Origin: Verrucomicrobiales bacterium
GTDB lineage: Bacteria; Verrucomicrobiota; Verrucomicrobiia; Limisphaerales; J093
Assembly: GCA_037439785.1 (NCBI GenBank)
Contig: JBBIVJ010000015.1
Span: 19,573-83,572 of the forward strand
DNA length: 64,000 bases
Direction: 5' to 3'
In this document: positions 3,796-62,316 of the stretch, one piece after another
Numbering within the stretch: position 1 is the stretch's first letter
How the letters are laid out: the number at the start of each line of letters is the position of its first letter
Translations under genes and position numbers: made by a program
The notes under the pieces: model-generated
The model's input: only the letters and a program-made list of their open reading frames with translations
Told to the model about the DNA's origin: nothing
Databases searched by the model: none

Positions 3796-5082
3796 ATGCG
3801 CCACCGTCCGATCCCGCGCACGTTGTTCCATGAAAACCGCCGCCGGCTGGCGGCCCTGCTGCCGCCGCGTTCGCTGGCCGTGGTCAACGCCAACGACCTG
3901 CTGCCCACCAACGCCGACGGCCGGCTGCGGATGCAGCCCAACTCGGACCTGTTTTACCTCACCGGCATCGAGCAGGAGGAGACGGTGCTGGTGCTGGCGC
4001 CCGACGCCTTCGACGAGAAGCAGCGGGAGATGCTGTTTCTGCGCCAGCCCAACGAGCACCTCAAGGTCTGGGAGGGGCACAAGCTCAGCCCCGACGAGGC
4101 CGGGGCGATCTCCGGCGTGAAGCAGGTGCGCTGGCTCACCGAGCTGCCGGCCGAGCTGCACAAGCTGATGTGCGAGATGGAGCACGTGTACCTCAACGCC
4201 AACGAACACCCCCGGGCGGTCATCGAGGTCGAGACGCGGGAGGCGCGGTTTGTGCGGGCCTTGCAGCGGCGCTACCCCCTGCACGATTACCGGCGGCTGG
4301 CCCCCCTGTTGTCCCGGCTGCGCGTGGTCAAGTCCGACCCCGAGCTGGCCCTGATCCGGGAGGCGTGTGCGCTGACCGGGCGGGGCCTGGCCCGCGTGTT
4401 GCCCCTGGTGCGCCCCGGCGTCAACGAATGCGAAATCGAGGCCGAACTGGCGCGGGAGTTCATCCGCGGCCGCGGCGCCTTTGCCTACCCCCCCATCATT
4501 GCCTCCGGCCCCAATTCCTGCGTCCTGCACTATACCGCCAACGATCGGACCTGCCGCAAGGGGGAGGTGCTGCTGCTGGACGCGGCGGCCAGCTATGCCA
4601 ACTACAATGCGGACCTGACCCGTACCCTGCCGGTGAGCGGCCGGTTCACGCGCCGGCAGCGCCGGGTGTACGACGCGGTGCTGCGCACCCTGCGGGCGAT
4701 GATCCGCGCGGCCACGCCGGGCAAGCTGCACCGGGACTGGCAGCGCGAGGCCGAGGCGCTGCTCACCGAGGAGTGCCTGCGCCTGGGGTTGCTCACCGCC
4801 CGCGAGGTCCGCCGCCAGTCCCCCGACCGGCCGGCGGTGAAGAAGTACTTCATGCACGGCCTGGGGCACGTCATCGGTCTGGATGTCCACGATGTGGGGA
4901 GCTTGCGGGAACCGATCGCCCCCGGCTGGGGGCTCACCGTGGAGCCGGGGTTGTATCTGCCCGCGGAAGGCTTCGGCGTGCGCCTGGAAAACCTGGTCTG
5001 GATCAGCCCGGAGGGACCGGTGGACCTGATGGCGGACCTGCCGCTGGAGGCGGAGGAGATCGAGGCTGCGATGCGGGGCTGA
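3796..5082 (+). CDS. Xaa-Pro aminopeptidase (peptidase M24B family)
   Basis: N-terminal creatinase-like segment (NSDLFYLTGIEQEE) and M24 metal ligand regions (LLLDAAASYANYNADLTRT, HGLGHVIGLDVHD, TVEPGLY, VRLEN). Internal ATG 3796 chosen over track start 3760. Confidence 0.85.
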   Translation: MRHRPIPRTLFHENRRRLAALLPPRSLAVVNANDLLPTNADGRLRMQPNSDLFYLTGIEQEETVLVLAPDAFDEKQREMLFLRQPNEHLKVWEGHKLSPDEAGAISGVKQVRWLTELPAELHKLMCEMEHVYLNANEHPRAVIEVETREARFVRALQRRYPLHDYRRLAPLLSRLRVVKSDPELALIREACALTGRGLARVLPLVRPGVNECEIEAELAREFIRGRGAFAYPPIIASGPNSCVLHYTANDRTCRKGEVLLLDAAASYANYNADLTRTLPVSGRFTRRQRRVYDAVLRTLRAMIRAATPGKLHRDWQREAEALLTEECLRLGLLTAREVRRQSPDRPAVKKYFMHGLGHVIGLDVHDVGSLREPIAPGWGLTVEPGLYLPAEGFGVRLENLVWISPEGPVDLMADLPLEAEEIEAAMRG

Positions 5083-53847: not shown

Positions 53848-56514
53848 CTAGGGCACCGAGCGGGCGCGGTAGAATCGCCGCGCCGCCCCGCCCGCCGTCG
53901 GGTCGGTGAAGTCAACCACCCCGTCGGGATTGTCCACGGTCCCCAGCACTTCCCAGCTCGAGAGGTCCGCGCTGGATTCCAGTCGCACCCGTCCGCCGGG
54001 GCTGGCTGCCACGCGTAGTCGGAAGCCGGTGGTTGCCGCCCAGCCGAGCGCCTGGAGCGTGACCTGGTCATCGTCCACCACGGTCACGGTGGCGCGCAGG
54101 CGCTCGCCGGGCAGGCCGTTGACCAGGCCGCTCAGTTGCACCTCGATCGTCTCGGGCGGCTCGGCCAGTGCGTCGTTCAAGAGCGTGAGGACCACCGGAC
54201 GGCTGGTCTGGCCGGGGGCAAACACCAGCGTGCCCGCCGCGGCCACGTAATCCTTTCCCGGCGTGGCCGAGCCCCCCGCGGTGGCGTAATCCACGTAGAG
54301 GGTCTGGGCCGCGGGCTTGCTGAGGGTAACCGTGAGGGTGAGGCTGCCGGTGCCCTCGGAGACGGTGTGGGCCGCGGTGCCGAAGTTCACCGTGGGCGGG
54401 TCGTTGTCCAGAATCTCGAACACCGCCCCGGCCGGCGCCACCAGCACGGCGTTGGTGGGGTTGAAGAGCCGGACCTCGACGGTCTCGGTCCCTTCGTCCA
54501 GCCCGTCCTCCAGCACGGGGATGAGCAGGTCCTTCCGGGTCTGACCCGGGGCAAACTCGAGCTGGCCGGTCAGGGCCACGTAATCCAGCCCCGCGGTGGC
54601 CGTGCCGTTGGTGGCGGCCCAGGCCACGGTCACCGCCCGGCCGGTGGCGGCGCTGAGCAGCACGCCCAACCGCGCCTGGCCGGCACCTTCGTCCACTGCG
54701 GACCGCTCGGTTGCGAAGCGCACAGTGGGCAGGTCGTTGTCCAGGAGGGTCACGGTCAGCGGCGGGCCGGGCACGGTGTCCACCCCGTTGGTGAGCACCA
54801 CCTGGAACTGCTCGTCCAGCTCGACCTGCGTGTCGTCCAGCACGCGGAGGGTCACGGCGTGATTGGTGGAGCCGGGGGGGAAGATCAGCGTGCCCGCGGC
54901 CGGCTCGAAATCCGGGCCCGCGCCCGCGGTGAGGGCATGGGTGAAAAAGTCCACCCGCACCTCGCGGAGCATGGGGTAGGCGAGGTGGACCGGCACGGTC
55001 AGATTCGCGGTGCGTTCGGTCAGGTTGGTCTCGGTCACCGCCAACCGCACCGGCGGCGGCGGGGTGGTGTCCACAAAGATCGAGTCGCTGACGGCGGGGG
55101 AGACGTTGCCAAAGGGGTCTTCGAACTGCACGCGCACCGTCCGCGTGGTCACGCCCGCCGGCAGTTCCCAGACCTTGACCGGCGCAAACGCTTCCCACGC
55201 CGACCAGGTGGTGCCGTCATGGCTGAAGCGCATCCGCGCCACCGTGCCGCTGTTGTCGGCCGCGGCCAGCGAGAGCGTGACCAGGCGGTTGGTGGTAATG
55301 GCCGCGCCGTCGTTGATCGCCACGCTGCCCGCCGGCGGGTCCAGGTCGGTGAGGATGTTGGTCGTGGTGCTGACCACCGTGCCGTCCGGCCCGGTGACCG
55401 TCTGCGTGACGGTGAACCGGCCCACCGCGCGGAAGACATGCACCGGGCTGCGCGCGGCGCTGCCCGCGCCGTCGCCGAAAGTCCAGCTCCAGGCCGTCCC
55501 GGCCACGGACAGGTCGGTGAAATACACGGTGAGCGGGGCGCGCCCGGCGGCGGTGGACACGGCCAGGCCGGCCAGCGGCCGCGTGGGCAGGGCGTGCCAG
55601 GACGCGACGGCAAAGTTGTAGCCGAGCCGGCTGACGTTGAAACCGTCCGACCACGTGACGGTAGCATTGGTCAGTCCCATCAACAGGGCCGTGCCGGAGG
55701 CCGGCGCCACGGCGGTGCCCACCCATTGCCCGGTGAGGGGGTGGAACAGCCGGGCGCGCAGTTGGGGGCCGTTGCTCCAGGCCACCAGGCCGGCATCGGT
55801 GAGCAGGCTCAGGGCGCCGGCCGTGGGGGTGTCCTCGCGGGCCCAGCGCTGCCGCAGGGGGTCATAGACGCGCAGGTGCACCGCGCCGCCGGCGCTCCAG
55901 GCCACCACGCCGTTGGTGCTGCCCAGGTCAAAGGTGGGGCCGAAGGCGTTGTCATCAGCCTGCCAGCGGCCGGCTGCGGGGTCGTAGGTGCGCAGAAACA
56001 CCGCATTGCCGCTGGACCAGCTCACCACCCCGTCCACACAGCGCAGATCGAAGGTCGAGCCGTTGACCTTGTCCAACACCCATGTCCCGCGGGCGTGATC
56101 GTACCCCACCCAGCCGACCTGGGCCACCGCGCTCCAGGCCACCACGCCGCGGTGCTGGCGCACCTCCTGGACCTGGGGGACGGCCCAGTTGAACTCGACC
56201 CAGTTGGTCCGGGCGGGATCGTACGTGCGCACGTGCACGGCGTCGCCGCTGGACCAGCTCACCACGCCGCCCTGGTTGTGGAAGGCAAAAAGCACCGGCG
56301 CCGCCGCGACGTGGGTGTACTCACGACCCTGGGCCGGGTCCCACACCCGACAGGTCACGCGCGCCCCATCATACGTGGCCGACACCTCGCCCAGCGGGGC
56401 GGACAGGTCGAACAGCGCGGCCCGGCTCGCGGGCGCAACGACCAGAGCGGCCCCCAGCCCCAACATTAGACCGGGCGCTGCGGCGCGCCCGGGGCCGATG
56501 CGCCGTCGGGCCAT
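53848..56514 (-). CDS. Large secreted protein: 40-aa repeat propeller-like region + PKD domain + several Calx-beta domains
   Basis: Signal peptide, then six to seven repeats of GVV(A/S)WS.G..V.(L/V)R.YDP....W. PKD-like WSWTFGDGAGSAARSPVHVFRAVGRFTVTQTV. Calx-beta signatures (TATAGLDYVALTGQLEFAPGQT...DEGTETVEV, and GSATPGKDYVAAAGTLVFAPGQT). ATG 56514 chosen. Confidence 0.8.
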   Translation of the reverse strand: MARRRIGPGRAAAPGLMLGLGAALVVAPASRAALFDLSAPLGEVSATYDGARVTCRVWDPAQGREYTHVAAAPVLFAFHNQGGVVSWSSGDAVHVRTYDPARTNWVEFNWAVPQVQEVRQHRGVVAWSAVAQVGWVGYDHARGTWVLDKVNGSTFDLRCVDGVVSWSSGNAVFLRTYDPAAGRWQADDNAFGPTFDLGSTNGVVAWSAGGAVHLRVYDPLRQRWAREDTPTAGALSLLTDAGLVAWSNGPQLRARLFHPLTGQWVGTAVAPASGTALLMGLTNATVTWSDGFNVSRLGYNFAVASWHALPTRPLAGLAVSTAAGRAPLTVYFTDLSVAGTAWSWTFGDGAGSAARSPVHVFRAVGRFTVTQTVTGPDGTVVSTTTNILTDLDPPAGSVAINDGAAITTNRLVTLSLAAADNSGTVARMRFSHDGTTWSAWEAFAPVKVWELPAGVTTRTVRVQFEDPFGNVSPAVSDSIFVDTTPPPPVRLAVTETNLTERTANLTVPVHLAYPMLREVRVDFFTHALTAGAGPDFEPAAGTLIFPPGSTNHAVTLRVLDDTQVELDEQFQVVLTNGVDTVPGPPLTVTLLDNDLPTVRFATERSAVDEGAGQARLGVLLSAATGRAVTVAWAATNGTATAGLDYVALTGQLEFAPGQTRKDLLIPVLEDGLDEGTETVEVRLFNPTNAVLVAPAGAVFEILDNDPPTVNFGTAAHTVSEGTGSLTLTVTLSKPAAQTLYVDYATAGGSATPGKDYVAAAGTLVFAPGQTSRPVVLTLLNDALAEPPETIEVQLSGLVNGLPGERLRATVTVVDDDQVTLQALGWAATTGFRLRVAASPGGRVRLESSADLSSWEVLGTVDNPDGVVDFTDPTAGGAARRFYRARSVP

Positions 56515-56753
56515 GCTGAATCGTCCACCGCGGATAGTAGAAACCCTGGCCAACATGGCCGGACAGCCTAGCAAGTCACTTGCCAGAGGCAACGCGGCTG
56601 CCACCCCCGCCCAGGACAGGCAGCGTGCGCTTTACCATCCCCGAGGGTCCGGACAGTCCCCGTCCGCCGCGGAGCTGGACCGGTGAGCCGGCTTCCCCGG
56701 AAGCGGCTGCTTGTCGGCACCGGGGCTCCTTGGCAACCTCCGGCCGCACCACC

Positions 56754-56975
56754 ATGCCCGGACACCGCCCCAGCCCACTGGAGGACATCATCCGCATCCG
56801 CCAGGACCTGCGCGACCGCTACCAGGACGGCTTCCCCATTCTGAAGGAACTGCTCCAAAACACCGACGACGCGGGGGCGGCCAGCGGGAGAACCTGCCGG
56901 CTCCAGCCTGCTCCGTCTCAACAACCTGCTCCGCCCAAACGCACCTCCGCTCCATCCTGCCTCCCCCGCCGTTGA
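56754..56975 (+). pseudogene. N-terminal fragment (~42 aa) of a sacsin-like / GHKL HATPase defence-type protein
   Basis: MPGHRPSPLEDIIRIRQDLRDRYQDGFPILKELLQNTDDAGA matches the N-terminus and the (E)L(L/I)QNADDA motif of bacterial sacsin-like HATPase proteins, which are normally over 1000 aa. After nt ~56879 the frame turns into Pro/Ser/Ala-rich sequence and stops at 56975. Confidence 0.5.
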
Positions 56976-57042
56976 GGACCAGCCAAACCGGCGCGGCTTT
57001 TTCTCCAAGCGCTTCTCCTCAAAGCACCCTTGAGCTGCTAGG

Positions 57043-57297
57043 GTGCGTCCGATGCAACCGCTCGAACGCTTCCAAGGCCTGCTGCGCGAACTGTTCCAGT
57101 TCGACTGCCAGGACCTCGATTTCGGCATCTACCGGGTGCTCAACTACAAGCGAAAGCAGATCGAGGAGTTCATCACCACCCGCCTGCCGCAGCACGTGGA
57201 TGAGGCTTTCATTCTGTGCAGCTTCTCGACCAGCCAGACCCCTTTTCCCAGCGAACTTTGCGATTACGGTCCGCAGCTGATCAATTTGAAACCATGA
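57043..57297 (+). pseudogene. N-terminal fragment (~55 aa) of a large RM-type enzyme (methyltransferase/helicase class)
   Basis: MQPLERFQGLLRELFQFDCQDLDFGIYRVLNYKRKQIEEFITTRLPQHVDEAF (ATG 57052). I recall the LFQFD..DLDFGIYR(I/V)(M/L)N motif from the N-termini of large RM-associated enzymes. The protein-like sequence and high GC end near 57210. Confidence 0.45.
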
Positions 57298-58871
57298 GAA
57301 CAGTCTATCGCACAGGCTTTCCTTTCGAGTCGAACGCTGGCGAAGACCCGTTGAAGGAGGGAGCGGCGCTTTGCTTGAATTGGGCGCTAACGCGACCTGG
57401 GGTCAACAACGGATCTCGCGCCTTGGCAAGCCAACACAGCCAATCCTTCGGGCCGGTTTCCATCGGAGCGGGTTGTTGGCTCGAGGCCCGTTTGCTTGAA
57501 GGTGGGGATCGTCGTGGTTGGGCGATGAGGCTCAGGCACCCACACCGGGACGGTCAGAGAACAGACGAACAAATTACCTGGCAGACCGAAGTTGGGATTG
57601 CTGAAAAGAGCGGCTCCTTCACGTTCACGTGCTCGGTTGCGGTCGGGCGCACCGACAGTGCCATCGCGCCAGTGCGCTTTGGTCCTACACGCCCACGGCT
57701 GGTGCTCGAAATGCTCAAGAAGTTCAGGTGCGGCGGCGCGATTCACCTTTCGGACAAGCCCTACGTGCTTACGAATAAAGCAGACGACGCCAAGCTGTTC
57801 CGCAAACTGTTGGAAAGCCCCTTGCGGCAACTGCCCGTCGTATTTGTCACCCCACGTGTCTCCGGCGACTACGTTGCCGACGCGGCAGTTATCGCCAACC
57901 AACTTGCAGGATTGGCCTACGGGGTCGTGGCGAGTTGTCCGGCGGCCACTCGCTTCTTGAGCCAAGAACTCCCTCCTCAGTTAAACTGCTACGACGGCGG
58001 CGTCCGGGTTTACTGGCCCGGCTTCGCTGTTTCAGATTCTCCTTATGCCCATCCTTTGTGGCTATGGTGGAGAATCTGCTGCTTCAACCAACCTGACGCG
58101 TTTGCAAGGCATTTGCTGGAGAAAATTACTTCGGTCGCTATTTTGAGCCTTCACCCGGACTGGTTAACGTGGGCCACGGTTGAATCCCAAGACCGCGCGA
58201 AAGCAATCGAGCGGGCAAAATCGGCAGGCGACACCGAGCAAAGATTGAAGCTTTTTGAAGAGGAGAACCAGTTGCTCCTAGCGGAGATCGATCAGCTCAA
58301 AGCTGAACTTGACTCCAAGTCAACCGAGTTGAGGGACGCTCGACTAAAGATACACACCTACCTACAGGCGTTCGAAGCGCGTAAGCGGTTAGGGGCAGAC
58401 CAACGGGAGGAGGAAACCATGATTCCTCCCGCGAACGTGGAAGAGGCTCTCGAAAGAGCACAGCAGTTGTTTGCCGGACGTTTGGTCTTCAGCCTAAACG
58501 CCAAGTCAGAAGTACGGCGAAACCCATTCGAGCAGCCCGAGCAGTTGCTGGAAGCTTTGTCTTGGCTGGCCAATCAATATTTCGACTCGAAAAGCGGCGC
58601 GAAGCCGGGCACCCGTCTGCGCGACAGCATCAGGGAAATTCTCCGAGACTGGTTCTACTCTGGCGGCCAGAGTGATCAGACAATGGGGCAATTCAGGGAA
58701 TGGTATCGCTGCCACTTCGAGGACCGAAATTGGGAACTCGGAGAGCACATTGGTACAGGAACGAGCAAGGATTCGCGGCACTCGATTCGCGTAGCATTCA
58801 CCTGGGACAAGCAAGGAAAACGGGTCATTGTTGGATTCATTGGCCAGCACCAACGCAGTCGGAAGACATGA
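57210..58871 (+). other. Low-GC (~50%) foreign segment carrying a single ORF
   Basis: Hand counts: 41/80 (57210-57290), 29/60 (58081-58140) and 30/60 (58261-58320) G+C inside. Outside: 43/60 (56221-56280) and 41/60 (59041-59100). Confidence 0.6.
57294..58871 (+). CDS. Hypothetical 525-aa protein, no family recognised (N-terminal domain + coiled coil + C-terminal domain with a RelE/HigB/Gp49-like terminal motif)
   Basis: Longest ORF in the low-GC segment. ATG 57294 is in frame with track ORF 57216..58871. Balanced amino-acid composition, unlike the Arg/Pro/Gly-rich shadow ORFs. Coiled coil RLKLFEEENQLLLAEIDQLKAELDSKSTELRDARLKIH. C-terminus HSIRVAFTWDKQGKRVIVGFIGQHQRSRKT. Confidence 0.65.
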   Translation: MRTVYRTGFPFESNAGEDPLKEGAALCLNWALTRPGVNNGSRALASQHSQSFGPVSIGAGCWLEARLLEGGDRRGWAMRLRHPHRDGQRTDEQITWQTEVGIAEKSGSFTFTCSVAVGRTDSAIAPVRFGPTRPRLVLEMLKKFRCGGAIHLSDKPYVLTNKADDAKLFRKLLESPLRQLPVVFVTPRVSGDYVADAAVIANQLAGLAYGVVASCPAATRFLSQELPPQLNCYDGGVRVYWPGFAVSDSPYAHPLWLWWRICCFNQPDAFARHLLEKITSVAILSLHPDWLTWATVESQDRAKAIERAKSAGDTEQRLKLFEEENQLLLAEIDQLKAELDSKSTELRDARLKIHTYLQAFEARKRLGADQREEETMIPPANVEEALERAQQLFAGRLVFSLNAKSEVRRNPFEQPEQLLEALSWLANQYFDSKSGAKPGTRLRDSIREILRDWFYSGGQSDQTMGQFREWYRCHFEDRNWELGEHIGTGTSKDSRHSIRVAFTWDKQGKRVIVGFIGQHQRSRKT

Positions 58872-59356
58872 ACCTTGAAGGTGGACTTTGAGACGGTCGG
58901 CGACCCCTCGTTGCTGGCCGTGGACTGGCTGCGCCATCCCTTCGGCCCCGGCTCAAGGTCCAGGAGGGTGACGAAATCGTCGAACCCCCCGTGGACTTGG
59001 TCGAGACGTTCAACTACCTGCTCGGCCTGCACATGAAGAAGTTGCGGGAGTTCCGTGACCGAAAGCGTCCCCACCGCGTCGTGCTCGGCAAGGACCGGCA
59101 GGGCAGGTCGGTCGTGGTCGTCTGTCGCGACACCGATGGGTTGGAGGACAACCCGCGGGAACTCCAGGCGGACCGGCAGTTCATCGAGCAGACCATTCTG
59201 CCCGCGTTGCTGGAGAACGACGCCAAGCCCGACCGGCCTGCCTGTGCCGTGTCCGGCACATCAGACAGGCTCTTGGTCAACCAGCCTTGCACGGTGGCGG
59301 AGGCCGAGGCCATCGAGCCGGAGTTCAAACACCTGATGTTCGCACCTTGGAGCTGA
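58872..59356 (+). pseudogene. C-terminal fragment of an RM-type enzyme, with an internal frameshift
   Basis: One frame reads TLKVDFETVGDPSLLAVDWLRHPFGPG (58872-~58950). Another continues LKVQEGDEIVEPPVDLVETFNYLLGLHMKKLREFRD...VVVVCRDTDGLEDNPRELQADRQFIEQTILPAL to the stop at 59354-59356. The switch lies near the GGCCCCGGC run at ~58944-58952. I recall the ETFNYLLGL-type block from C-terminal regions of RM methyltransferases. Confidence 0.45.
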
Positions 59357-59399
59357 ACGGGCCGGCCAATGCGGCATCCCGGCCCGGCGCGACGGCGAA

Positions 59400-59594
59400 T
59401 CGGCGGGCGGGCTGTTGGGCGCGGAGCAGCCGGTGACGGTCATCGAGATCACCAAGCTCACCGACTACAAACGCGGCGGCGGATTGAGCGTGGTCGTCGA
59501 GGCCTTCGGGCCGAGCAACCTGCTGTTCGTGGACGAAGGACATCGCGGCGCGAGCGGCGAGCCGTGGCGGGCGTTGCGGGGGCGAGCGGCCTGA
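59400..59594 (+). pseudogene. Internal fragment of an SF2 (type III Res-like) helicase including motif II
   Basis: Frame 3 (not listed in the ORF track) reads GLLGAEQPVTVIEITKLTDYKRGGGLSVVVEAFGPSNLLFVDEGHRGASGEPWRALRG then a stop at 59592-59594. LLFVDEGHRG is a DExH Walker B/motif II. No motif I precedes it, and an upstream in-frame stop lies at 59334. Confidence 0.45.
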
Positions 59595-60070
59595 GCGATC
59601 CGAAGATCCAGTTGCACCGCCGGCTGGCTGAGCTGCTGCCCGAGTTGCAACGGACCTGCCGCAATTGTCAGGTGCGGCTGACCTCCTTCATTGTATCGCC
59701 GACGCCTTATGACCAGGCACGGCGGAGTTCGTGGGGGGCGGACCACAGCCGCGAGGCGCTGGCCGCCGAGCACGTGCGGTTTCAGGAGGGCGACTATATC
59801 GCGCAGCCCTGGAGCGCGCTTGTGGAGGATTTGGCTTCCACAACCTCCGCCGGGACATCTGCCGGCGTGGTCGGCAGCAGCGTTCTGACGCACGCAGTTG
59901 CTCGTGCCGCACTACGGAAACGGGTCGAACGTTCCCCGGGCCTCACCACTGGTGTCCCCGCCTGCTCCCTGCTCGGGCTGGGGCGGGTGGTACCCTGAGC
60001 CACGCCGCTCCGGCCGATTTCCCGACCGGACCACCCCGGTGCCGCCCGAGCCGGGCTGCCCACCGGAGCC

Positions 60071-61840
60071 TTACTCAGCCTGCAACCAAAAAATCCGCAG
60101 CGGCTCGGGCAGCACGGGCAGCGTGACGCTGCTCCAACCGTCGCCCCCGGCCACGGAAGCCGCCAGCCGTTCGGCAGGCCCGGCCAGGCCCGGACGGCTG
60201 AGGAGCTTGACGGTGGCCGCCGTCTCCGGCCAGCGGACCTGCACGCCTTCCGGGACACGTGCCGCCGTCAGCCGCAACGGCGCCGCGTTGGAGAAACTCA
60301 GCCGGGCAAACTGCGCGTTGCATTGAAAGGCGCGCAGACCGATCTGGCCGCGGGGGTAATTGGTATCCGCGATGGTCAGCCGGGGGGTGTGCGGGTCGTT
60401 CACGAAGACGCGGATTCGGCTGCCTTCCAGGACGACGCGCAGCCGGTACCAGGTGTTGGTGGTCACGGGCAGCGCGCGGTTGGTCAGGAGGCTCCAGGCG
60501 TTGTGCATGCGCCCCAGGAGCACGAGGCCGGCGGTATCCAGGCCGGCATAGTAACCGAAGGCGTGGTCGGGCCCCTCGTAATCGGGGTTGGTGGTGCGGA
60601 ACATCACGCCGGCGTTTCCCGGAGTGGTCAGCATCAGGTCGGTTTCGAGGATGCCGTCGGTCCAAAACCCGTCTCCGGTCAGCGCCAGACCGTAGGTCCC
60701 GGCGTTGTCGAGCCGAGCGCGTCCGCCTTCGACGACGAAGTTCCCGCCGTAGCGGGTCCAGTCCGCCGCCTTGCTGTCCTGGAAGTCTGCGGTCCACGGA
60801 TTGGGCCAGACGGGCCGGGGCAGCACGGTGCCGAACCGGAGGCGGGCATCGGGATGCACCACCATCACAGCCACCTCATTGGAGCGGGTTTGATAAAGGG
60901 CCGGCCAGGAGTGGGCGTAGCCGAGCGGCCAGGCGGGCGGGTCCAGTTTTTGCCAGGTGCGCCCGTAATCCTCGCTGAGCGACACGACGTTTTCGCAGGA
61001 GGTGAGCAACACCAGACCGTTGCTGAGCGCGGTCACAAATGGCCCGCAATGCTGGCAGGGCACGCGCATTCCCAGGCCGTCGGGCCAGGTGATGCCGTCC
61101 GGGGAAAACTTGCAGTGCACGTCCGCCCGACCGACGCCGACGACCTCGTAAACCAGGAGGTACTCGCCATTGGCCATGCGGGTCATTTGCGACATGCCGG
61201 GACGGAGGCTGCCGCCGCCGGGTTCCACCACCACCCGGCGCTCCGGTCCCCAGGTAAACCCGGAATCGGCCGACACGCGCAAGGAGATCACCTGGCTGTA
61301 GCCGGGATGCTTTTCGTTCGAGTAGGTCACCACCAGCCGGCCGTCCTCGAGGACGAAAAAGTCCGGTTCCCACAGACCCCTGCCCTGCTGTGCGGTTGTC
61401 CCTTCGCTCGCGTCAATGTTGCTCCGATAGGTCCAGGTCAGCCCGCCGTTGTCGCTGGCGTAAACGGGCAGCCGATAGGACTGGTTGGCGATGAGGGAAC
61501 GCATTGTGAGCAGGAGGGTGCCGGCCGCGAGCCGCACCAACTCCCCGTTGTCGAGCGTGCGTCCCGGCTCGCGCACCTCGGCCAGCGGTGTCCACGTGCG
61601 CGCGTGGTCGGTGCTGCGGGCGATCCGCAGATAACTGGGGGTGCCGGCCGGGTACTGGGTGCTGACCGCCAGCCAGTGTCCCTCGGACAACGCCACCATC
61701 CGGCCCCAGCCGCCGCCCAGGACGGCCGTTTCGTTCCAGTTCACGCGCCCGGCCAGGCCGGAGACCTGGGCAATGCAAGCCAGCGCCGCCCAACCCCAGC
61801 CGGGCAGCACCCGTCCGCGCGGGCACAAACGGAAAAACAT
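60071..61840 (-). CDS. BNR/Asp-box sialidase-like glycoside hydrolase fused to a DUF1080 (LamG-like) domain
   Basis: Asp-box motifs STDHARTW, SDNGGLTW, SADSGFTW, SEDYGRTW. The C-terminal ~200 aa (WTRYGGNFVVEGG...FRTTNPDYEG...WYRLRVVLEGSRIRVFVND) matches DUF1080. Start is taken as Met-27 of the track ORF. My hand count of the plus-strand position was off by one, so I rely on the track frame. Confidence 0.75.
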   Translation of the reverse strand: MFFRLCPRGRVLPGWGWAALACIAQVSGLAGRVNWNETAVLGGGWGRMVALSEGHWLAVSTQYPAGTPSYLRIARSTDHARTWTPLAEVREPGRTLDNGELVRLAAGTLLLTMRSLIANQSYRLPVYASDNGGLTWTYRSNIDASEGTTAQQGRGLWEPDFFVLEDGRLVVTYSNEKHPGYSQVISLRVSADSGFTWGPERRVVVEPGGGSLRPGMSQMTRMANGEYLLVYEVVGVGRADVHCKFSPDGITWPDGLGMRVPCQHCGPFVTALSNGLVLLTSCENVVSLSEDYGRTWQKLDPPAWPLGYAHSWPALYQTRSNEVAVMVVHPDARLRFGTVLPRPVWPNPWTADFQDSKAADWTRYGGNFVVEGGRARLDNAGTYGLALTGDGFWTDGILETDLMLTTPGNAGVMFRTTNPDYEGPDHAFGYYAGLDTAGLVLLGRMHNAWSLLTNRALPVTTNTWYRLRVVLEGSRIRVFVNDPHTPRLTIADTNYPRGQIGLRAFQCNAQFARLSFSNAAPLRLTAARVPEGVQVRWPETAATVKLLSRPGLAGPAERLAASVAGGDGWSSVTLPVLPEPLRIFWLQAE

Positions 61841-62316
61841 GTCAGACGATTGGGATACCGGACCGGCGCTACTGTCAAGCGGGCGGATCGCCCCCGAAGA
61901 CGGCGCAACGATCCCCAACCTGGCGACCGGCGTGTTCCAGTTCTCTAATGCCCATGCCAGTAGCCGACACGAGGTCGGATCGAGTTAGGGAGCGTTTACC
62001 CTGCCGGCCGGTAGCGTCCCGCCGCTCCACCCGGTGGCGCGGCCGTGGCTGGTACCCGCCCCACGCACGCCGCCCAAGACAGGCAGCGGCTGACCGGGAT
62101 CGCCAGGGCTTGTCCCTGCCGGCGCCGCTCACCCGGCGGAGCCGTGACCGGGCCTGGGCCAGGGCAGCGTCGGCAGCGGTCGGGGAAGTGGATGAATCTT
62201 GCGGGGTGGGCGTTGCCGGGCCGAACGCAGACGTGCAGGTACAGTAAATGGCCGCCTTTCAGTCCGGCAGGGGGCGAGGTGCTGTTGCGAGAGCCAAGGG
62301 TCCTCCAGCGGCGACA

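Follow-up and report, generated by a model that had tools for sequence, protein, structure and literature searches.

The HEC-07 locus

The stretch of DNA analysed here (64,000 nucleotides, referred to as the window) contains a 3.5-kb patch of defence-gene remnants in which a single gene is intact. That gene occupies 57294..58871 on the plus strand, encodes a protein of 525 aa and is assigned to the HEC-07 family from its PADLOC match, its homologues, an AlphaFold 2 (AF2) model and its invariant residues. The patch around it is a small type III restriction-modification (RM) remnant plus one ATPase fragment, lying between ordinary chromosomal genes. A Calx-beta gene (53848-56604) stands on one side of it and a BNR gene (60071-61918) on the other. 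The remnants and the intact gene are all on the plus strand.

The leftmost piece (56754..56882) is a 43-aa N-terminal remnant (...ILKELLQNTDDAGA) of a large sacsin/TmtA-like GHKL-type ATPase, recognized through weak matches to Pfam SACS and PADLOC TmtA. The rest of the gene is missing. Over its 43 aa this remnant shares 86% identity with a fragment of 108 aa at a related locus (L003), which matches the TmtA models with E=9e-9. Next, at 57052..57210, is what remains of the 5' end of a type III-like mod methylase gene. It encodes residues 1-~53 of ~1000-1057 and corresponds to positions 11-52 of 1057 in the PADLOC MTase_III model PDLC03646. Its amino acid identity to the N-termini of P0067, P0070 and the Mod of L015 is 82-86%, its DNA identity to L015 754-906 is 83%, and its GC3 of 0.85 is host-like.

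On the far side of HEC-07 is the 3' remnant of the same mod gene (58881..59356), a pseudogene covering the last ~145 residues (MTase_III positions 942-1054 of 1057; 74% DNA identity to L015 3475-3903). It is damaged by a frameshift at ~58946-58949, seen when tblastn of P0017, P0023, P0029 and P0045 aligns in frame 3 and then in frame 2, and by a 27-nt insertion from ~59237 that adds PACAVSGTS. Measured against a near-intact homologue, the two mod remnants correspond to residues 1-50 and ~855-997 of ~1003. The preliminary description had proposed that the middle of a defence or RM-type gene was replaced here, and it was right: the flanks match the two ends of one MTase_III family, with strand and order preserved.

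Two fragments of the partner gene, res, follow. One is internal (59364..59597, residues ~188-267 of 1042) and includes the DEGH helicase motif. It matches PADLOC REase_III positions 253-292 of 1154, is 87% identical in DNA to L015 5028-5261 and is also found by tblastn with the Res proteins of L015 and L018. The other is the 3' end of the same gene in another frame (59570..59821, residues ~955-1038 of 1042), where 84 aa align at 63% identity in a tblastn search with L015 Res and blastn matches L015 7304-7520. Residues 268-954 have been deleted. The flanks and the downstream fragments are colinear with the mod-res genes of L015 and L018, with 72-87% DNA identity to L015. The locus resembles a long-Mod type III RM system (PADLOC MTase_III PDLC03646 plus REase_III PDLC03654, as in L018) in its colinear mod-res arrangement, but differs in that most of both genes is missing. 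About 80% of mod and ~85% of res are gone and neither catalytic core is left. The window has no Mod with a PF01555 core and no complete Res, so it holds a remnant rather than a system. Because res has also been cut to two fragments, the RM system is dead and HEC-07 would be the one gene in the patch that still works. It had been suggested that this gene landed in a defence hot spot and outlived its neighbours. The second half of that suggestion fits, since HEC-07 is the sole intact gene, but one RM remnant and one ATPase fragment argue little for a hot spot.

Composition and boundaries of the inserted segment

In composition, no stretch of the window deviates more than the segment 57211-58880 (GC 56.3% vs 69.9%). 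Its tetranucleotide distance is the largest in the window (z=+5.6), and at 1.66 kb it is the window's GC minimum for that length, about 4.4 sd under the mean. In 100-nt windows across the segment GC ranges from 46 to 68% with a median of 56%, and 13% of them are at or below 51%. Thus the GC anomaly noticed at the outset is real, but the 48-51% first reported for it is too low. The 68-72% given for the flanks does not hold for the adjoining DNA, which has 58% (57000-57209) and 64% (58872-59356) GC; 70% is reached further out. GC3 of the HEC-07 ORF is 0.635, compared with 0.85-0.90 in the flanks and neighbouring genes.

The composition shift ends where the junctions of Mod homology fall. On the left, protein comparison places the junction at nt 57210, where Mod homology stops at ...HVDEAF. 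On the right, homology resumes in both DNA and protein at 58881, so that 9 nt separate the HEC-07 stop codon from mod (58872..58880, plus strand, as shown by aligning the DNA with that of L015 and L016). The original placing of the right junction at the stop codon itself was therefore true to within 9 nt. Likewise, the leader that had been put at about 80 nt measures 83 nt (57211..57293, plus strand, 52% GC, sequence read directly). Diverged mod sequence was considered as an origin for this leader and rejected, as tblastn of P0061, P0062 and P0069 past 57210 adds almost no identities. A search for terminal repeats at the junctions, direct or inverted, found none, there is no tRNA gene within the window and no transposase or integrase is among the ORFs examined around the segment.

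Coding integrity and expression

The segment contains one intact ORF, from ATG 57294 to TGA 58869-58871, exactly as first described. The N-termini of homologues (MRTIYRTGFP...) favour this ATG over a GTG upstream at 57216. A chimeric ORF of 84 aa begins in mod and runs through the leader, and its TGA (57295-57297) overlaps the HEC-07 start as ATGA. A promoter scan found no sigma-70-like promoter. Purifying selection among the homologues (dN/dS 0.05-0.22) speaks for a functional-looking gene. Between the window gene and these homologues dN/dS is not computable because synonymous sites are saturated (pS 0.77-0.82).

A divergent member of HEC-07

HEC-07 stands for Hma-embedded candidate 07, represented by PADLOC models PDLC04158-04161 (Payne, Hughes, Fineran & Jackson 2024, bioRxiv 10.1101/2024.01.29.577857). 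One representative of the family reduced phage plaquing in E. coli (Payne et al. 2024). Model PDLC04161 matches the window protein with E=2.4e-62, aligning residues 2-523 with model positions 22-551 of 553, and PDLC04159, 04160 and 04158 match at E=1.9e-28, 5e-25 and 1.3e-14. Judged by its sequence, the ORF is an intact member of this single-gene anti-phage defence family described in 2024. Scans against Pfam, NCBIfam and PHROGs returned coiled-coil noise only.

The preliminary description had taken the gene for an orphan of an undescribed family. Neither term can be kept. The HEC-07 models match from end to end, a family profile search returned 4869 clusters, and PADLOC-DB already includes the family, which Payne et al. 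(2024) describe, with one representative tested experimentally. What does survive is the proposal of a single-protein defence gene, because HEC-07 is a single-protein anti-phage family. The gene is nonetheless a divergent member, probably from Verrucomicrobiota. Full-length colinear homologues are 34-62% identical to it, and the nearest relative among the sequences retrieved reaches 62% identity at most.

Like other family members, the window copy is a single gene in the size range of ~520-550 aa whose product matches the HMM over its full length (E=2e-62). The order of domains is shared too: an N-domain comes first, the thioredoxin-like domain that follows lacks CxxC, and the C-terminal domain has a conserved histidine at its end. 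Homologues likewise occur as lone genes. Embedding in other defence systems is also a shared trait. One homologue (L001) directly follows HmaA and adjoins CBASS-like genes, and those of L005-L012 lie directly upstream of type II RM genes. The window copy differs in that it occupies the interior of a type III mod gene and not a gap between the genes of an Hma system; in having as host a high-GC genome, probably of Verrucomicrobiota, with its ≤62% identity to any sequence retrieved; and in that the system around it is dead. No Hma system (HmaA helicase, HmaB methylase, HmaC ATPase), the usual setting of HEC genes, surrounds the gene; the models that the window fragments hit are those of MTase_III, REase_III and TmtA, not of Hma. 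Since the surrounding system is dead, any HEC-07 activity here must be autonomous.

In every locus examined but L001 the GC of the HEC-07 homologue is lower than that of the host DNA. Scans of genomes and metagenomes with family peptide patterns yielded 4 extra loci only, too few for defence-association statistics. The gene can decay, as a close relative in L003 shows by being frameshifted. A mod C-fragment in L019 has next to it an ORF of 524 aa that was considered as a further HEC-07 and rejected; this ORF is the N-terminal half of Mod.

Protein architecture and the C-terminal domain

The AF2 model of the protein, built from an 85-sequence alignment, has a pLDDT of 93.5. It replaced an earlier model from 12 sequences in which the C-terminal domain had a pLDDT of 35-55. 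Four regions can be distinguished: a beta-rich N-domain (1-120), an alpha/beta, thioredoxin-like domain (135-290), a long helix (293-368) and a C-terminal putative RNase domain (382-525) with a beta-alpha-alpha-beta-sheet fold. This agrees with the layout first read from the translation, which was an N-terminal region of about 290 aa, a coiled coil and a C-terminal domain. The translated sequence contains no CxxC motif. H485 (58746-58748), G489 and H519 (58848-58850) are invariant in 85 relatives at 21-62% identity, and every invariant and near-invariant residue of the family is kept in the window copy. H519 lies six residues from the C-terminus, within GQHQ, and by its position probably equals H543 of the tested HEC-07 protein.

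According to Payne et al. (2024), HEC-07 domains resemble an AdoMetDC-like protein (3C6K), thioredoxin (3VFI) and the RelE-family toxin HP0892 (4LTT), and the C-terminal part is a RelE-like RNase domain with the conserved histidine H543. The link to RelE in that work consists of structural superposition and the conserved histidine only. Our whole-chain Foldseek searches against the PDB (both models) and BFVD had no match under E=1e-3, and among the best 50 PDB matches listed there was no RelE-family and no AdoMetDC-like entry. The N-domain matched START/helix-grip folds weakly (best 6cay, E=4.5e-3). Thioredoxin matches were also weak, at E~0.04-0.05 and probability 0.75-0.9 (3p2a, E 0.04; 5ayl, probability 0.90).

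The C-terminal domain was compared more widely. Its profile matched neither PDB sequences nor Pfam, and 40 C-terminal domains were also without a Pfam match. Aligned by hhalign with four toxin sequences (RelE, YoeB, YafQ and HigB, validated with Pfam), the profile scored a probability below 1%. One local alignment, GKRVIVGFIGQHQ / DEKVVVFVISVGK, mirrors the likeness to the ending of RelE/HigB-type toxins that had been noticed by eye, but it is not significant. Pfam and hhalign returned no RelE/ParE/YoeB/YafQ/HigB family match for the protein. The fold of RelE, YoeB and YafQ runs from a strand through two helices to an antiparallel sheet. In the AF2 model, the order of secondary structure in residues 397-517 is compatible with this type of fold. 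The by-eye resemblance agrees with the RelE-like domain of Payne et al. (2024), although our sequence and fold searches find no link to RelE. HEC-07 would share with the RelE/ParE toxins (RelE, YoeB, YafQ, HigB, HP0892), per Payne et al., the C-terminal fold and a catalytic-type histidine. It differs in lacking detectable sequence or profile similarity and any such entry among the best 50 Foldseek matches listed, in the fusion of its C-domain to ~380 residues of other domains, and in having no antitoxin gene. Across the window and L001-L014 no small partner gene is conserved as a cognate antitoxin, and the neighbours vary by locus.

Interpretation

The reading that we favour, and consider probable, is that this is a functional-looking HEC-07 member, horizontally acquired, that replaced mod codons ~54 to ~854 and acts as outlined here. 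Horizontal transfer of single-gene cargo was already part of the preliminary description, and it accords with a compositionally foreign segment holding one intact ORF. HEC-07 would have arrived with its 83-nt leader in the resident type III-like mod. We infer N-terminal sensing and autoinhibition, an RNA substrate and expression from the mod promoter. The AdoMetDC-like and thioredoxin-like N-terminal domains, together with the coiled-coil helix, may hold the protein inactive, probably as an oligomer, and sense infection. Infection would then release the C-terminal RelE-like domain, which might cut RNA, most likely mRNA on the ribosome, through His485 and His519. Translation would stop and the infection would abort. 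Expression is probably from the old mod promoter, with the 84-aa chimeric ORF translationally coupled to HEC-07 via the ATGA overlap.

What if the protein is a HEC-07 defence protein but its effector is not a RelE-type ribosome-dependent mRNase? Other chemistry (such as that of a nuclease or RNase that needs no ribosome, or one that is not nucleolytic) or action mainly by the N-terminal part could account for the failure of sequence and fold searches to connect residues 382-525 with the RelE/ParE superfamily. It would also suit a published RelE case built on superposition and a conserved histidine, and the invariance of H485, G489 and H519, a pattern that fits many acid-base catalysts. However, the predicted topology (strand, two helices, antiparallel sheet, C-terminal histidine) resembles the RelE fold as it is generally known, and the superposition on 4LTT points the same way, so we regard this alternative as unlikely, if the least unlikely of those considered. 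The invariant histidines are obvious targets for mutagenesis.

Somewhat less likely again is that the ORF is a recently stranded passenger, now silent or decaying, and intact only for lack of time. All of the neighbouring defence genes are fragments, the promoter scan found no promoter-like site, the L003 copy is frameshifted and the unameliorated GC3 hints at recent arrival. Against this, 525 codons have stayed open with all conserved family residues kept while the flanks gained a frameshift, an insertion and large deletions. Moreover, the start codon matches the family N-terminus, and the upstream ORF, which overlaps it by ATGA, is oriented like the old mod promoter. Far more improbable is an assembly artefact, a chimeric contig with a mid-GC fragment in a high-GC genome. 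Such a chimera would explain why GC and k-mer composition change sharply at both junctions, and the source genome is probably metagenome-derived, its relatives being uncultured Verrucomicrobiota MAGs. However, both flanks belong to the same gene, in the same strand and order and colinear with mod-res in L015 and L018; L015 and L016, which are independent assemblies, show a like replacement of mod with other cargo; and a GC below that of the host DNA is the rule for HEC-07 homologues, L001 excepted.

Possible cargo swapping at mod, and embedded defence genes

At this locus, one defence gene clearly lies within another instead of in the space between genes; the host system was destroyed and the cargo survived. 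Payne et al. (2024) raised the question of how defence systems come to be embedded, and why, and the locus is relevant to it. Surveys that demand intact flanking genes would miss embedding of this kind. PrrC in EcoprrI, as summarized by Payne et al., offers a comparison in that it too is an RNA-targeting suicide effector in an RM locus. However, PrrC lies between intact hsd genes and is kept inactive by the RM proteins, whereas the RM system in the window was wrecked by the insertion. The two proteins belong to unrelated families.

The replacement of mod has parallels in two other genomes. In L015 and L016 the same gene is hollowed out and carries a type II RM pair, a different one in each, instead of HEC-07. 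Among the window, L015 and L016, three loci with different cargo, the left junctions are placed at residues ~56, ~80 and ~185 of Mod. On the right, all three junctions cluster in a span of ~150 nt, with 9 nt separating two of them. One speculative and rather doubtful reading is that the conserved 5' and 3' ends of this long type III mod family act as a reusable docking site, where self-contained defence cassettes might be swapped into the interior of the gene, and later from genome to genome, by recombination within the mod ends that are kept; the mod promoter and start would drive the cargo. If so, this would offer a specific path for the origin and spread of embedded defence genes, and gene-internal embedding would be invisible to surveys requiring intact host genes. 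Cargo-free, in-frame fusions of the N- and C-terminal parts of mod also occur (P0061, P0062 and P0064), and L019 holds another hollowed copy.

Identity and predicted structure of the protein

The HEC-07 ORF is intact and runs for 525 codons from an ATG at 57294 to a TGA at 58869-58871, exactly as first described. Position 57294 is taken as the start because all homologues begin with MR/KT(I/V)YRT(G/S)F, and a longer reading from a GTG at 57216 was rejected on the same grounds. Scans of the 525-aa protein against Pfam, NCBIfam and PHROGs gave no useful match. The PADLOC model PDLC04161 for HEC-07, a single-gene anti-phage defence family, matches residues 2-523 over model positions 22-551 of 553 (E=2.4e-62), and the three remaining PADLOC HEC-07 models likewise match. 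HEC-07 belongs to a set of nine 'Hma-embedded candidates' (Payne et al., 2024, bioRxiv 10.1101/2024.01.29.577857). The preliminary description had proposed an orphan of an undescribed family. This has to be given up: HEC-07 is already known, one representative has been tested experimentally, and searching with a profile of the window protein plus 11 homologues yields 4869 clusters of 50% identity when the cut-off is E<=1e-3, or 644 when it is E<=1e-30. The window gene is a divergent HEC-07 member, and the nearest sequence retrieved is 62% identical to its product.

An AlphaFold model made with 85 diverse relatives (pLDDT 93.5, pTM 0.69) has a beta-rich domain (residues 1-120), an alpha/beta domain (135-290), a long helix (293-368) that corresponds to the heptad-rich coiled coil noticed earlier, a flexible linker and a C-terminal domain (382-525) in which one strand and two helices are followed by an antiparallel sheet ending GQH519Q. 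Only H485, G489 and H519 are invariant in the 85 sequences (21-62% identity). Because all three fall within the C-terminal domain, conservation marks it as the putative catalytic part.

The published description gives HEC-07 an AdoMetDC-like N-domain and a thioredoxin-like domain lacking CxxC, and likens the C-terminal domain, with its conserved histidine H543, to the RelE-family toxin HP0892; it contains no mutagenesis or biochemistry (Payne et al., 2024). A literature search found no later mechanistic paper on the family. The RelE/HigB likeness seen by eye in the window protein therefore agrees with the published account. The comparisons made here, of the whole chain by fold and of the C-domain by sequence profile, neither confirmed nor refuted the RelE assignment. 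Whole-chain Foldseek against PDB returned nothing below E=1e-3; it gave only weak matches of thioredoxin and START-like type, and the 50 best that were shown include no RelE-family structure. A C-domain profile had zero matches to PDB sequences and Pfam, and hhalign of the C-domain against RelE, YoeB, YafQ and HigB was negative.

A foreign gene among decayed defence genes

The compositional anomaly of the segment is genuine. Positions 57210-58871 are the G+C minimum of the window at the 1.66-kb scale (56.3% versus 69.9%, about 4.4 sd under the mean), and the tetranucleotide distance from the window profile is maximal there (z=+5.6). However, the effect is smaller than the hand-counted values had implied: 100-nt windows inside the segment have a median of 56% G+C, and values of 51% or less occur in only 13% of them. 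The ORF has a third-position GC of 0.635, whereas the flanking remnants and the genes nearby have 0.85-0.90.

These remnants belong to a type III-like restriction-modification (RM) system, for which the near-intact locus L018 (mod 328+675 aa, res 1058 aa) served as reference. Upstream, the first part of an 84-aa ORF is the N-terminus of a long Mod methylase: PADLOC MTase_III PDLC03646 is matched over positions 11-52 of its 1057, and the N-termini of two related proteins (P0067, P0070) and of the gene at locus L015 are 82-86% identical. Mod homology ends with HVDEAF at nt 57210 and restarts at 58881, 9 nt past the HEC-07 stop codon. The 3' remnant (58881-59356) is frameshifted once, near 58946-58949, and carries 27 inserted nucleotides. 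Measured against L018, Mod residues 1-50 and ~855-997 are left. Downstream lie two res fragments, one at 59364-59597 (residues ~188-267, with a DEGH motif) and one at 59570-59821 (residues ~955-1038); at 59570-59597 they abut or overlap by ~18-28 nt in different frames. A short repeat may have been the site of the ~2-kb internal res deletion, as GCG..GGCC..AG.GATCC is similar at both breakpoints in L015. At 56754-56882, upstream of the mod remnant, a sacsin/TmtA-like GHKL ATPase is represented by its N-terminal 43 residues.

Ordinary chromosomal genes surround the patch, which is ~3.5 kb long in all; they encode a Calx-beta/PKD protein, a BNR/3-keto-disaccharide-hydrolase protein, argininosuccinate synthase and a PEP-utilising enzyme. 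A search for terminal repeats at the segment junctions was negative, the window contains no tRNA gene, and no mobility gene was seen among the ORFs examined around the segment.

The relatives occur in varied settings. A homologue with 34% identity (L001) directly follows an HmaA helicase (PADLOC E=0) and precedes CBASS-like genes. Those of L005-L012 (60-62% identity) lie directly upstream of a PF01555 methylase and one further gene, which is Bpu10I-like in L005 and L006, where the arrangement includes a 4-nt overlap, and without a Pfam match in the other loci. The L004 homologue stands alone amid housekeeping genes. In all loci but L001 the HEC-07 GC is below that of the host DNA, e.g., 0.53 versus 0.69 and 0.51 versus 0.68. 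These settings and values fit a mobile, self-sufficient defence gene.

Comparison of the window gene with its relatives is saturated at synonymous sites; when the relatives are compared with one another, dN/dS is 0.05-0.22. No invariant or near-invariant family residue has been lost from the window copy, whereas over the same period the genes around it became frameshifted, took up an insertion and lost kilobases to deletion. The evidence supports reading the gene as single-gene defence cargo of toxin type and foreign origin that has survived the death of the RM system around it, and the observation behind this reading was essentially right apart from the G+C values.

One feature bears on expression. 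The 84-aa chimera of mod and leader has its stop codon in the same ATGA (57294-57297) as the HEC-07 start codon. This overlap could have come about by chance, but it suggests that transcripts from the old mod promoter read through and that translation of the two ORFs is coupled. A scan for sigma-70-like promoters, which carries little weight for this phylum, was negative.

A frameshift near nt 1070-1100 interrupts the homologue in an uncultured Verrucomicrobiota MAG (L003:323-1898, 56-58% identity). Behind this homologue lies the C-terminal part of a HerA/mad8-like ATPase, in another small patch of decayed defence genes. The homologue also adjoins an ATPase stub (L003:2350-2676, minus strand) that is 86% identical to that of the window, on the opposite side and strand relative to HEC-07.

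Hollowed mod genes at other loci

The gene-internal embedding of this HEC-07 member is worth noting, and it has parallels. In the window, mod residues 1-~53 and the last ~145 enclose HEC-07, and res is in two fragments. In L015 (746-7560), ~80 left residues and a retained right end enclose a type II methylase (E=1e-132) and a type II endonuclease (E=1e-59), and res is intact. In L016 (6001-8679), ~185 left residues and a retained right end enclose a D12-class type II methylase (E=1e-64) and an endonuclease (E=7e-54); res is not seen before the contig ends. Both cargoes, which come from two other assemblies, are complete type II RM pairs, and they differ from each other in methylase and endonuclease.

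Our reading of the hollowed copies is that mod is dispensable and has been inactivated repeatedly, acting as a 'genomic sink'. The left junctions of the three loci lie at three different positions; on the right, only 9 nt separate the junction of the window from that of L016, and the L015 junction lies ~142 nt upstream. A minority hypothesis is that cassettes would be exchanged via the conserved mod ends. Such a route is plausible because type III mod alleles exchange central recognition domains through recombination in conserved flanks. Besides these loci, in-frame fusions of the Mod N- and C-termini occur without cargo or catalytic core (P0061, 203 aa; P0062, 246 aa; P0064, 371 aa, at L017:1674-2789). 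They may have arisen by decay, or they may be an N+C module that has been kept.

Another core-deleted mod copy lies on a 333-kb metagenome contig (L019:14257-18702); the larger island around it also encodes an HmaA-like SNF2/NOV_C helicase and a Piwi-domain protein (prokaryotic Argonaute). Between mod and res in L015, two small genes (3919-4376; 79 aa, and 73 aa with DUF2283) are candidates for a small toxin-antitoxin-like pair lodged within the type III system.
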